20,000 bases of DNA, taken from IMG/VR virus record IMGVR_UViG_3300023173_001245; one strand, given 5' to 3'. A program made the translations under genes and the position numbers. The DNA comes from an uncultured virus (IMG/VR IMGVR_UViG_3300023173_001245) (lineage: Duplodnaviria > Heunggongvirae > Uroviricota > Caudoviricetes). Shown here piece after piece: positions 11,945 through 18,584 of the stretch; the stretch's first letter is position 1, and every line of letters starts with the position of its first letter. The notes under the pieces are model-generated. The model did not search any database. It was given only the letters and a program-made list of their open reading frames with translations, and was not told the DNA's origin.

Positions 11945-12432
11945 TTTTGACCGTATTTTTCTAAAAGTTCAGGTGAATATTGTTTGATATCTTTAATATT
12001 TTTTTCTTCTCTCTTTGCTCTTTCAAGTTCATATACTCTATTTCTAAGTTCTGTAGTAGAATACTGATGTCTTCTTTTATGATAGAAAATTTCAACATCG
12101 TTATCAATACAATATTGCTTTCCAGTAAAATCAATATCTTTATATTCTTCACTCAAAAATCTAATATGAAATGTTTGAGTTTTAATTAGATTGAGGAGAT
12201 CTGCTTCAGTATCGTATATCAGAATCTCATCAACATATTTACACCCCTGTACCTGAACAAACCTTTCATAAATTGATTGTGCTGGTTTGTTTTTTAAACT
12301 AGGTCTATCAATAGTGGGATCAACTTGTAGTGCAACCTTTAGATAGTCACACATTTCTTTTTCCATCTTGAGCATTGTAACATGCCCCGCATGAAAAAGA
12401 TCAAAACAACTACAATTAAAACCAATTTTCAT
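11941..12432 (-). CDS. Cytidylyltransferase, glycerol-3-phosphate cytidylyltransferase (TagD)-like
   Basis: FDLFHAGH (HxGH) and the C-terminal R...YSTTELR motif. Confidence 0.85.
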   Translation of the reverse strand: MKIGFNCSCFDLFHAGHVTMLKMEKEMCDYLKVALQVDPTIDRPSLKNKPAQSIYERFVQVQGCKYVDEILIYDTEADLLNLIKTQTFHIRFLSEEYKDIDFTGKQYCIDNDVEIFYHKRRHQYSTTELRNRVYELERAKREEKNIKDIKQYSPELLEKYGQK

Positions 12433-12452
12433 ATCAATAACACTTTTATCTA

Positions 12453-12481
12453 ATTATACAAAAAAAGCAGGGTTTATGCAA
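12453..12481 (-). promoter_or_regulatory. Sigma70-type promoter for the glycan operon
   Basis: TTGCAT-N17-TATAAT on the minus strand; the -35 lies inside the terminator hairpin. Confidence 0.7.
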
Positions 12482-12487
12482 CCCCGC
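12460..12487 (-). terminator. Rho-independent terminator after the wcaG-like RNA
   Basis: GCGGGGTT-GCATA-AACCCTGC stem-loop followed by T7. Confidence 0.8.
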
Positions 12488-12502
12488 TTTATAAGGTCTT
12501 TT

Positions 12503-12591
12503 CATGCACGCCACTTACTCTTTGTCCAGAAGCAAGAAACTGGGCGGGGTAACCCCATCCGCACCACTAATTTTTAAGAAAAATTAGAAAC
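12503..12591 (-). ncRNA. wcaG-like structured RNA motif
   Basis: Two UGGYG motifs (TGGTG, TGGCG), a GGGGTTACCCC hairpin, and CCAG/CTGG plus CTTGCT/AGTAAG pairings. It lies upstream of polysaccharide genes, as described for cyanophage wcaG RNA. Recognised from memory; not searched. Confidence 0.75.
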
Positions 12592-13165
12592 TTGTATGTT
12601 TTATAATATTAAAAGCCAATGTAATTCTTTCTCCTTTATAGGTTTGTGGTTCAACGGAATGATCCACTCGACTATTAAATAAAATCATAGTTCCATTATC
12701 ACCTTCATATTTTTTATTATGTTTAGGAAATAATGTTGGATGATTTTTATTTTGATAATAAATTACACCAGAAATTGATCCTGAATGTTGATGAGTTGGA
12801 TTTCCATTTCCCTGATAAGAAAAATTTGTCCAAACATCCCATCCATCAAAATGTCCAGGTCGATTTAAGAGTTTATAATCTCTATGATGACCTCCCCAAT
12901 GCATTGAACACACTCTAAGGGTGTATGGCAACCAGAAAGAATTAATGATTAGATATGGAGAAACAGAACACTGATAACTATTTTGCAATCTAAAGTCTGA
13001 ACCATATCCAAGATTTTCATGAGCTTTAAGAAATCCAAGTGGATGATTCTTATTTTTCTTAGACTCATTAACCCAAATTTTTATTTCTTGGTTTATTTCT
13101 TTTGGTAATTTACATATCAGAAAAGGATCAACCCATTTTAAATCAAATTTCATAAAAAATACCAT
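12584..13165 (-). CDS. Putative 2OG-Fe(II) oxygenase (TIGR02466-like)
   Basis: PTHQH (HxH), SGVIYY, ILFNSRVDHSV and RITLAFN. Confidence 0.8.
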   Translation of the reverse strand: MVFFMKFDLKWVDPFLICKLPKEINQEIKIWVNESKKNKNHPLGFLKAHENLGYGSDFRLQNSYQCSVSPYLIINSFWLPYTLRVCSMHWGGHHRDYKLLNRPGHFDGWDVWTNFSYQGNGNPTHQHSGSISGVIYYQNKNHPTLFPKHNKKYEGDNGTMILFNSRVDHSVEPQTYKGERITLAFNIIKHTSF

Positions 13166-13170
13166 ATTGT

Positions 13171-13293
13171 CTAGTTTTCGAACTAGAAAACGCAGGGGTC
13201 ATTTGACCATCCCGACCAGGGTTTTTTACATGTCTCCATCATGGGCATTTATTAGGGATGACTCCACCAGTTCTTTTAGAGACTTTCCGTGTC
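13171..13293 (-). ncRNA. manA-like structured RNA motif overlapping the end of the upstream CDS
   Basis: GACACGGAAAGTC...GAACTGGTGGAGTC...GCCCATGATGGAGACATG...CCCTGGTCGGGA... repeat-like modules, near tRNA genes and upstream of sugar-metabolism genes. Recognised from memory of the cyanophage manA RNA. Confidence 0.6.
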
Positions 13294-13542
13294 TTCATCG
13301 TCCTTGACATAGGCAGGGACGTTATCGGGATCCAACCAACAAGTGTAATCGTGATCTTCCATTGCGGTCATGAGTTGCATCTCATTATCACATAGATACA
13401 TATCGCGGTAGCGTCCAGTATAGGAATCTACCTTTTGAATTCGACAATCAGGCATTCCGTTGATTTCCAACTTCCCAACCTGCACATAACGATAAGGAAA
13501 CCGCTCCATAAGAACGGTAGGTTTTTTAACGACTTTCATCAA
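13276..13542 (-). CDS. Conserved cyanophage hypothetical protein
   Basis: 88 aa, ERFPYRY...YRDMYLCDNEMQ; overlaps the stop of the upstream gene. Confidence 0.8.
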   Translation of the reverse strand: MMKVVKKPTVLMERFPYRYVQVGKLEINGMPDCRIQKVDSYTGRYRDMYLCDNEMQLMTAMEDHDYTCWLDPDNVPAYVKDDEDTESL

Positions 13543-13754
13543 GCAACCTCAATGGTTTCAAGATCTGAAGCAATGTAATCCATGAGCATTTCATAATCAT
13601 CAAGGGGATCACCAGAGAACACCACTCCATTATTTTCATAAAAGCGGCGCACCTTTTTATAAAGTTTCGGACTCTTTACATCAAGGTAGATATCCCCGTT
13701 AGCAGCAGAACGAAGAGTGCTAACATCTTTCTTGAACTTTTCGATCAGAGACAT
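13539..13754 (-). CDS. Conserved cyanophage hypothetical protein
   Basis: 71 aa, YLDVKSPKLYKKVRRFY...FSGDPLDDY; directly downstream of a strong promoter. Confidence 0.8.
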   Translation of the reverse strand: MSLIEKFKKDVSTLRSAANGDIYLDVKSPKLYKKVRRFYENNGVVFSGDPLDDYEMLMDYIASDLETIEVA

Positions 13755-13777
13755 TGTCGTAATTTGATTACCCGAAT

Positions 13778-13806
13778 ATTATAAGGTTTGAATGGTATTT
13801 AGTCAA
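13778..13806 (-). promoter_or_regulatory. Sigma70-type promoter with an embedded late-like CTAAATA
   Basis: TTGACT-N17-TATAAT. Confidence 0.8.
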
Positions 13807-13830
13807 TGGTGCCAGCAGAAAAACTGGCAA

Positions 13831-13904
13831 TCGGAGTGATAGGATTCGAACCTACGGCATCCGCCTCCCAAAGACGGCGCTCTACCAAGCTGAGCTACAC
13901 TCCG
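13831..13904 (-). tRNA. tRNA-Pro(UGG)
   Basis: Cloverleaf; anticodon arm CCGTC-TT-TGG-GA-GGCGG; GTTCGAATC T-loop. Confidence 0.97.
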
Positions 13905-13908
13905 TTGT

Positions 13909-13981
13909 GATAGGTTCCTATCGCCGCCAGTCCTGAACCTATCTAAGGGAACTGCCGCAGTTGAGTGGTTTTCCTCTCAAC
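13909..13981 (-). ncRNA. Unnamed structured RNA in the tRNA-Pro leader
   Basis: GTTGAG/CTCAAC hairpin, 9-bp GATAGGTTC/GAACCTATC stem, possible CAGTTC/GGACTG pseudoknot; starts at the predicted TSS. Confidence 0.55.
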
Positions 13982-13988
13982 AGAAATA

Positions 13989-14017
13989 ATTATACTACTT
14001 TTTGTGGTGCTTGTCAA
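13989..14017 (-). promoter_or_regulatory. Consensus sigma70 promoter
   Basis: TTGACA-N17-TATAAT. Confidence 0.9.
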
Positions 14018-14147
14018 ATGGTGCCCAGTGCTGCCAGTTGTATTTGTGTATAAGATAGATACCCATAATAGGCACAACCACTAAAAGGTAACAAAGAAAT
14101 CCTAATGTAACTGGTGTCTCTAGTGTCCAGCGTGCTATATGTCCCAT
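13995..14147 (-). CDS. 50-aa single-TM membrane protein (MGHIARWTLE...QHWAPFDKHHKK)
   Basis: ATG 14147 forms a TAATG overlap with the upstream microprotein; hydrophobic core present. Confidence 0.75.
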   Translation of the reverse strand: MGHIARWTLETPVTLGFLCYLLVVVPIMGIYLIHKYNWQHWAPFDKHHKK

Positions 14148-18029: not shown

Positions 18030-18584
18030 TTAATCCATATCAACAACTAGATCAAAAGCAACTGAATACCTTTCACTCTGTTTATTGATAACATAGTGTG
18101 ATATCCAAGATGGATGAACAATTAGCATTCCTTTTCTTGGATATATCCACTGTTCTGGTTGATTAATCTCATTATATGTTTCCACAATATCTGGTGGAAT
18201 AATATTTTCAATACATCCTATCGGATTACTAAAAACAAGTTTTACATCAGAATCTTGTGGATAATAAACACCAATCAAATGACAATTCACATGAGTATGT
18301 GGTTTGCAAATATCATAGTGGTTACTATAATTACACCAAGAACTTCCTATTTTCAATGAATATTTAAATCCACATTGTTTATGAAAACAATTTGCAGACT
18401 CTACTACTCTATCTACTAGAGATTTAAATGGATATGAATCTAAATCTAAAGAATTTCTTAGTGAGTGACCTCCTTGATCACCATAGATTAAATGTTTTTT
18501 ACAAGACTCAATAATAGAATCATTATCAAGATCTTCAAATATTTGAACTCCAAGAGGAGTTACAAACATTGGTATTAAATCCAT
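18030..18584 (-). CDS. Putative 2OG-Fe(II) oxygenase (TIGR02466-like)
   Basis: MFVTP, PHTH (HxH), GVYYP, PSWISHYV and RYSVAFD. Confidence 0.82.
   Translation of the reverse strand: MDLIPMFVTPLGVQIFEDLDNDSIIESCKKHLIYGDQGGHSLRNSLDLDSYPFKSLVDRVVESANCFHKQCGFKYSLKIGSSWCNYSNHYDICKPHTHVNCHLIGVYYPQDSDVKLVFSNPIGCIENIIPPDIVETYNEINQPEQWIYPRKGMLIVHPSWISHYVINKQSERYSVAFDLVVDMD

Follow-up and report, generated by a model that had tools for sequence, protein, structure and literature searches.

Tandem wcaG RNA units of T4-like Synechococcus phages as possible antisense decoys for the 3' ends of host tRNAs

In the T-box antiterminator, UGG and the complement of the discriminator, placed beside a helix, pair with the NCCA end of a tRNA. 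The primer-binding site of retroviruses and LTR retrotransposons also starts with UGG; it is single, about 18 nt long, opens the acceptor stem of a host tRNA and primes reverse transcription. In integron cassette arrays, promoterless genes have stops which abut a repeat. The wcaG RNA (RF01761), a family without known function since 2010, is presented in the accessible part of Weinberg et al. 2010 (PMC2864571) as a candidate riboswitch and probable cis element, proposed for exopolysaccharide or high-light genes; an extract of PMC9964418 restates it as a candidate riboswitch and PMC10976474 does not mention it. Another cyanophage RNA, manA (RF01745), which lies near wcaG in phage S-CREM1, forms cages in cryo-EM according to an extract of bioRxiv 10.64898/2026.07.01.735769, and T-boxes are described in the relevant section of PMC10424219 as binding uncharged tRNA. 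A literature search, made mostly without subscription papers or Additional files 1, 3 and 7 of PMC2864571, returned nothing on wcaG binding tRNA, and a search of the same scope on tRNA decoys and on phage RNAs that pair with the CCA end of tRNAs gave no link to wcaG.

The window analysed here is a stretch of 20,000 nucleotides from an uncultured virus. Its sugar-nucleotide genes, its seven tRNAs and its DNA similarity identify the source as a T4-like cyanophage; this similarity is almost confined to Synechococcus phages (105 of 110 records), and salt-marsh and seawater runs contain nearly identical sequence. The Rfam covariance model of wcaG matches positions 12500-12595 over its full length, with 95.6 bits against a cut-off of 42. 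The original prediction had spoken of a manA/wcaG-like array, and the scan with the Rfam models upholds the second half of this name and not the first: manA is unmatched at E up to 10 in 12400-14100 and at E up to 1 across the window. Among five phage genomes searched, only S-CREM1 has manA, 370 nt from wcaG and behind two tRNAs. A manA RNA in the window or adjoining its wcaG is ruled out by the covariance searches and this five-genome check, and no module shared by the two RNAs was detected. The Rfam wcaG model spans two units out of four; as read from the sequence, what Rfam lists as wcaG RNA is the last part of a longer four-unit array at 12503-13294 on the minus strand (Table 1). The array is a full member of the family, with its repeated, covarying, pseudoknotted hairpin in T4-like cyanophages. 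It differs from the account in the accessible part of PMC2864571 by its own terminator, its shuffled order of units, its inserted genes and its tRNA-antisense tails, which are absent there. Such arrays are carried by the cultured phages S-PM2, S-SM2, S-CREM1 and S-RIM isolates, and are absent from many cyanophages. We found wcaG in none of six phages isolated on Prochlorococcus, versus four of six unselected Synechococcus phages (one of them below the cut-off) and eight of ten Synechococcus phages overall, four of which had been picked for having it.

Table 1. Position of the array, of its units and of the neighbouring elements in the window.
Feature	Position	Strand	Basis or remark
Second sigma-70-type promoter, perfect	14017-13989	-	before tRNA-Pro; consensus match only
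Sigma-70-type promoter, 11/12 consensus	13778..13806	-	heads two-gene operon ending in array; consensus match only
Conserved cyanophage ORF, phrog_552, no known function	13539..13754	-	upstream of 61/78 arrays with long flanks
Conserved cyanophage ORF, phrog_481, no known function	13276..13542	-	upstream of 63/78 arrays
Module 1, type A: 4-bp hairpin, YGG in loop, A-rich linker	13270..13294	-	
Ala unit: UGG and tail antisense to tRNA-Ala(GGC) 3' end, then weak hairpin	13243..13269	-	by eye
Module 2, type A	13219..13243	-	
Pro unit: UGG and tail antisense to tRNA-Pro(CGG), then hairpin	13193..13218	-	by eye
Orphan type-B pseudoknot without UGG	13171..13192	-	
Inserted 2OG-Fe(II) oxygenase gene, 193 aa	12584..13165	-	profile matches
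Type-B H-type pseudoknot: UUU loop 1, A-rich loop 3, oxygenase stop codon inside	12567..12593	-	Rfam match, covariation
Leu unit: UGG and tail antisense to tRNA-Leu(CAG)/Leu(GAG), then CCGC arm	12544..12566	-	by eye
Type-B H-type pseudoknot	12514..12543	-	Rfam match, covariation
Arg unit: UGG and tail complementary at 10/11 to tRNA-Arg(CCG) and tRNA-Arg(ACG)	12503..12513	-	by eye
Intrinsic terminator	12490-12464	-	prediction
-35/-10-like promoter, 17-nt spacer, overlaps terminator	12481-12453	-	read from sequence; below tool's threshold

The original prediction had singled out three related modules. We recover them on the minus strand at 12543-12509, 12593-12562 and 13192-13171; the end of the first, which had been placed at 12542, was one base off and its position is otherwise correct. 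As had been stated, the second contains the stop codon of the oxygenase (TAA at 12586-12584), while the third, a weak wcaG match (22.5 bits, E 0.18), lacks UGG and stands 5 nt ahead of the oxygenase ATG at 13165; the full-length Rfam match is made up of the other two. The two upstream units (13294-13193) and the nature of the UGGYG tails had been overlooked. We collected 119 arrays: that of the window, those of 8 isolates and 110 non-redundant ones from 120 IMG/VR loci, of which we dropped nine duplicates and L100, which is not an array. Every unit, 45-55 nt long, opens with a module; UGG and a fixed tail come next, and a short hairpin closes it. In a sequence-only MAFFT alignment of 53 related arrays (alignment A1; two mis-anchored sequences of 55 were left out), pairing is kept in 99.4% of cells and 14 of 22 pairs show compensatory change. 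None of 500 shuffled controls reached this pairing score, and slid controls pair at 37-57%. The proposed module pairings do covary, then; the hairpin behind the Leu tail has four almost invariant pairs, which are uninformative alone. The paired cells hold 78 G-U against 2 A-C, which shows that the minus (gene) strand is the folded one. Of 247 strong type-B calls, 238 have UGG directly behind the pseudoknot (111 of these served as search anchors, and the figure is 127 of 136 for the others), and a longer control stretch gave 5 type-B calls. Type-A hairpins have YGG in the loop in 200 of 202 cases; a C-U-G which spans the start of the motif would be a possible partner for it in cis.

The stems of the pseudoknots vary freely, with covariation, and the tails beside them are invariant, conservation falling after position 11-12. 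This is expected if the partner of the tail is an outside molecule. There are four dominant tail classes, each present about once per array and in variable order (for example Ala-Pro-Leu-Arg, Pro-Ala-Leu-Arg, Pro-Leu-Ala-Arg or Arg-Ala-Pro-Leu).

Several departures from this layout can be noticed. The loops of type-A hairpins resemble tails, with Pro-, Leu- and Ala-like words (window 13243-13219, L106 and L111 are examples). An extra module, made of a hairpin, an A-rich linker and UGGU only, precedes some arrays (L704:1670-1720, L711:1750-1800, L707, L709, L001) and is found on its own in P-SSM4 and ACG-2014d; the GCCA in the loop of this module might imitate the end of a tRNA or form pairs in cis. 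In some arrays (L001:1637-1687, L006, L095, L141) the last element is a pseudoknot lacking UGG, and what comes next is a gene in S-RIM4, a tRNA-Leu in S-H35, or else the terminator. ACG-2014f (L708:1660-1705) has an apparent single unit of Arg(ACG) type behind a membrane-protein gene.

We compared the tails with the host tRNA genes of PMC5733544 (Supplementary data 1, 61 cyanobacteria), to which CCA was added beforehand. All 44 tRNA genes of Cyanobium gracile and all 42 of Synechococcus CC9616 were read by eye; the comparison covers the tRNA sets of these two picocyanobacteria, taken as probable stand-ins for the hosts. By this reading, which gave identical tail matches in both organisms, the Leu tail pairs at 14 of 14 positions with tRNA-Leu(CAG), at 12 with Leu(GAG) and, at 10 of 11, also with Gly(GCC). 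With tRNA-Pro(CGG) the Pro tail forms 11 of 11 Watson-Crick pairs and two G-U pairs, while the Ala tail forms 11 pairs, one G-U, with tRNA-Ala(GGC) and 8 with other Ala tRNAs. For the Arg tail, tRNA-Arg(CCG) and tRNA-Arg(ACG) each give 10 of 11. The phage's own Pro(UGG) and Arg(UCU) tRNAs, also read by eye, pair over just 8 and 5 nt; the Pro tail is invariant over 7-8 nt only, and the phage's tRNA-Pro(UGG) fits those too. A single 8-nt tail would match by chance with a probability of 0.0006-0.026 if perfect and of 0.015-0.29 with one miss, and the rough joint chance for four tails is below 1e-4 in the most lenient setting. As in T-boxes, the UGGN of the units is complementary to tRNA NCCA and its fourth position tracks the discriminator: it is U in Ala (123/123), Pro (87/88) and Leu units (145/145, the Leu count being partly anchored), and C in 129 of 132 Arg units. 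The tails start with UGG and would pair with a host tRNA 3' end as primer-binding sites do, but over 8-14 nt and with four targets, and no reverse transcriptase is among the annotated ORFs of the window. We consider it very likely that the pairing of tails with tRNAs occurs in vivo.

In Cyanobium gracile and Synechococcus CC9616 only the initiator tRNA gene encodes its CCA. The consulted portion of PMC5143459 agrees, CCA being rarely gene-encoded there (1/44 in the supplement row of CC9311). Since the host tRNA genes do not have CCA, the UGG of the tails can pair only with mature RNA, so that any contact must be one of RNA with RNA and not an attachment site. An attachment site in a tRNA gene, based on DNA identity, is ruled out because the match includes the CCA absent from host genes. 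The attachment site of P-SSP7 contains the 5' half only, of a different tRNA-Leu. Opposite U70 of tRNA-Ala, the units have A in 125 cases, U in 6 and G in none, and the arm behind the Ala tail has C opposite G3 in 68 of 68. The presence of A, and never G, shows that the tails are antisense to the 3' strand of the tRNA, and the G3-U70 position rules them out as copies of tRNA 5' strands. Within the Ala unit itself this creates an A-C mismatch, which would become two Watson-Crick pairs under a two-arm exchange with the tRNA. The plus strand has a G-U pair at the 3-70 position of the Ala hairpin, and one may therefore imagine that the tRNA-like words act on that strand or as DNA, either as NCCA minihelix mimics or as relics of attachment sites. 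We regard this as extremely improbable: the minus strand is the one on which the pseudoknots fold and along which promoters and terminator are oriented, the lack of CCA in host genes speaks against relics, and strand exchange accounts for the same mismatch.

The Arg tail is a special case. Its two common haplotypes (69 and 56 of 138) each pair at 10 of 11 positions with both Arg isoacceptors: they are chimeras, with one mismatch per isoacceptor, and forms perfect for a single target were not seen among the 138. The exact partner of the commonest Arg tail is a single tRNA-Trp among 81 viral matches and does not occur in the 61 cyanobacteria. Read afterwards, this suggests a tail which may be a compromise between two targets. 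The matched ends differ in frequency across the 61 genomes, several of them being rare outside picocyanobacteria. The 14-nt Leu end and the Arg(ACG) end occur 3 times each and the Ala end 6 times, versus 49 for the common type, both picocyanobacteria being included in these counts; the Arg(CCG) end has 15 occurrences, and the 8-nt Leu and Pro ends are widespread, with 91 and 129. In cofolding, the median was -11 kcal/mol where an Ala or Leu end matched in full, versus -1 to -2.5 where at most 6 nt matched, using 330 stand-in tRNAs from stored loci which contain no good Pro or Arg stand-ins, and ignoring tertiary structure and modifications; the cofolds display the predicted two-arm exchange. 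A metagenome scan for the tmRNA-type Ala end returned tRNA-Ala genes and chance matches, with no picocyanobacterial contig recognised.

We propose that the four-unit RNA is an early decoy which acts in trans and captures host tRNAs, a reading which we find fairly probable. The array would form the 3' part of an early RNA transcribed from a sigma-70 promoter, and would end at its own terminator. Its pseudoknots would present UGG and the complement of the discriminator as a toehold for the single-stranded NCCA end, as well as a helix to stack on; the pairing would then extend 7-10 nt into the acceptor stem, and the short arm behind the motif would take the displaced 5' strand of the tRNA. The CCGC arm behind the Leu tail is complementary to such a 5' strand. 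The host tRNAs to which the units appear adapted are those for Ala, Pro, Leu and Arg that read GC-rich codons, phage tRNAs fitting less well, and by analogy with T-boxes the decoy would probably work best on uncharged tRNA.

The same pairing with tRNA might instead serve in cis, the array being a T-box-like sensor of uncharged tRNA for the operon, for the inserted genes or for the sugar-nucleotide and hli genes. UGG with the discriminator complement beside a helix does recall the T-box antiterminator, the last unit is followed by a terminator, and 47 of the 49 genes found inserted in arrays (see below) stop within 31 nt of the next UGG, either on the pseudoknot or right beside it. The classification of wcaG as a likely cis element, in the accessible part of PMC2864571, goes in the same direction. 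We nevertheless hold a cis sensor to be unlikely. The array has neither Stem I nor specifier and no Rfam T-box match; it differs from T-boxes also by the size of its units, by a pairing which reaches into the acceptor stem and by its four tandem specificities, shuffled in order and borne by a phage at the 3' end of an operon. In 67 of 104 arrays the terminator is overlapped by a promoter-like site, so that the genes downstream would need no read-through, and this speaks to some degree against a plain 5' leader of the sugar genes; in the window the site precedes sugar-nucleotide genes. In a locus whose upstream protein is closely related (L670:1740-1800), the whole array is lost and the terminator-promoter is kept. 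Sugar-nucleotide genes are often downstream of the arrays, as expected from the first proposal made for wcaG (PMC2864571, in the part available), that of a small-molecule riboswitch for exopolysaccharide or high-light genes; the downstream neighbours vary, however, and include tRNAs. Such a riboswitch seems to us highly improbable, as it leaves unexplained the four classes of tails matching tRNA ends, the shuffling and the separate promoter.

Another use of the bound tRNA would be to protect its end against defence enzymes of the host, or to deliver the tRNA to a phage protein that modifies it or brings about its decay. The pairing evidence is the same, and the ORFs of phrog_552 and phrog_481, which head the operon of the array in about four arrays out of five, are apparently co-transcribed with it, the stop of the latter overlapping the first module. 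Both ORFs also occur in phages without the array, and their proteins have only unnamed viral look-alikes, none informative. Shielding, moreover, would block charging. We judge this use very improbable.

Returning to the decoy in trans, its outcome would be a lowered translation of host-biased genes, or uncharged tRNA kept from triggering the stringent response, or both; we give the two effects roughly equal chances. The target tRNAs read CUG, CUC/U, CCG, GCC/U and CGN. Some of these codons are scarce in the genes of the window (CCG 0.9, CGG 1.9 and CGC 4.6 per 1000, over 5388 codons). Others are common, namely CUU/CUC (34.7 per 1000) and GCU/GCC (30.1 per 1000), and the window has no Leu or Ala tRNA, so that a strong depletion would harm the phage. 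The complete scheme, which we advance tentatively and with somewhat more doubt than belief, is that T4-like Synechococcus phages may possess a programmable, multivalent anti-tRNA RNA which clamps the CCA ends of deacylated host tRNAs by strand exchange, silences the stringent response and tilts translation away from GC-rich host codons. It offers a specific, testable ligand for the wcaG family. According to the section concerned of PMC6850273, cyanophage MazG does not hydrolyse (p)ppGpp, and the array, if it acts as proposed, would be a missing route by which cyanophages modulate ppGpp. It would also represent a viral strategy of capturing host tRNAs with a modular antisense RNA rather than cutting them, of which we found no instance in the literature searched; units of wcaG type in other viruses would then be the same device turned against other tRNAs. 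The scheme bears as well on the reason for which phages rich in AT, infecting Synechococcus rich in GC, have tRNAs of their own. What would be new is the mechanism, the sequence family being already catalogued.

We finally turn to the gene which interrupts the array. It encodes a 2OG-Fe(II) oxygenase (PF13759, E 3.6e-10, 40.5 bits against a cut-off of 27; phrog_81, E 1.3e-18). It had been described as AT-rich; its 29.6% GC is indeed low among the 23 window ORFs measured, but others are equally low, such as the next gene (29.7%) and a second oxygenase (29.5%). We used the upstream protein to fetch 80 viral loci (5 of them too short, and with a search pattern which missed some Leu units visible on direct inspection); only two have the gene, both identical to the window in this protein. 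In five of the nearest relatives (L625, L627-L629, L632; 94-98% identical in the upstream protein) the four units are contiguous and the gene is absent. In two metagenome runs, DNA contigs pass over the gene; the summed depth, which pools many phages, is about 35 over it versus several hundred to more than 1000 on the flanks. Contigs of RNA runs cover the array and parts of the oxygenase; they carry no information on level, end or strand. The insertion into a once-contiguous RNA array, put forward in the original prediction, is thereby supported: judging from these empty alleles, the oxygenase is a recent insertion into an uninterrupted array and a passenger in the spacer between independent units. 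The anti-tRNA design of the array, if correctly read, is the important feature of the region.

Different cargo at the same junctions had been anticipated too, and it exists: 49 inserted ORFs of 8 families, four of them in the oxygenase cluster, lie between units of the 119 arrays. Between their stops and the next UGG lie 1-52 nt. This recalls integrons, in that the cargo looks promoterless and its stops abut a repeat, and the original prediction had proposed recombination at the module, with repeats that may double as sites of cassette capture. The oxygenase of the window does lie between two similar pseudoknots, the downstream one being of a rare kind (2 of about 118). As a rule, though, capture through duplication is not supported. 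A spare pseudoknot stands ahead of the cargo in 1 of the 49 insertions, that of the window, and it resembles the pseudoknot that ordinarily comes before the Ala unit, as in 15 other arrays. Two of the oxygenase genes interrupt a unit from within, and one of these insertions has a 3-nt repeat. This means that the spacers tolerate insertion, and that a dedicated capture system is poorly supported. In contrast to integrons, the repeats conserve RNA folds, G-U pairs included, and neither an integrase nor another recombinase was identified nearby; the second oxygenase of the window, moreover, lies among tRNAs. We therefore consider integron-like capture very unlikely.

This second AT-rich 2OG-Fe(II) oxygenase gene, at 18030-18584 on the minus strand, is located between tRNA-Arg and tRNA-Asn. 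The two oxygenases are not close paralogues, and clusters of RNA genes look like general landing spots for oxygenase genes. Elsewhere, a cargo family with 15 cases (phrog_35121; L002:1720-1973, L007:1270-1497) is preceded by a TAAATA word, which we take to be like a T4 late promoter. The small membrane proteins of phrog_2318 (L003:1640-1894, L089 and 14 more) are encoded by genes which start 20-25 nt past the Pro motif and stop inside the Ala module, and these genes are candidates for a control coupled to tRNA.
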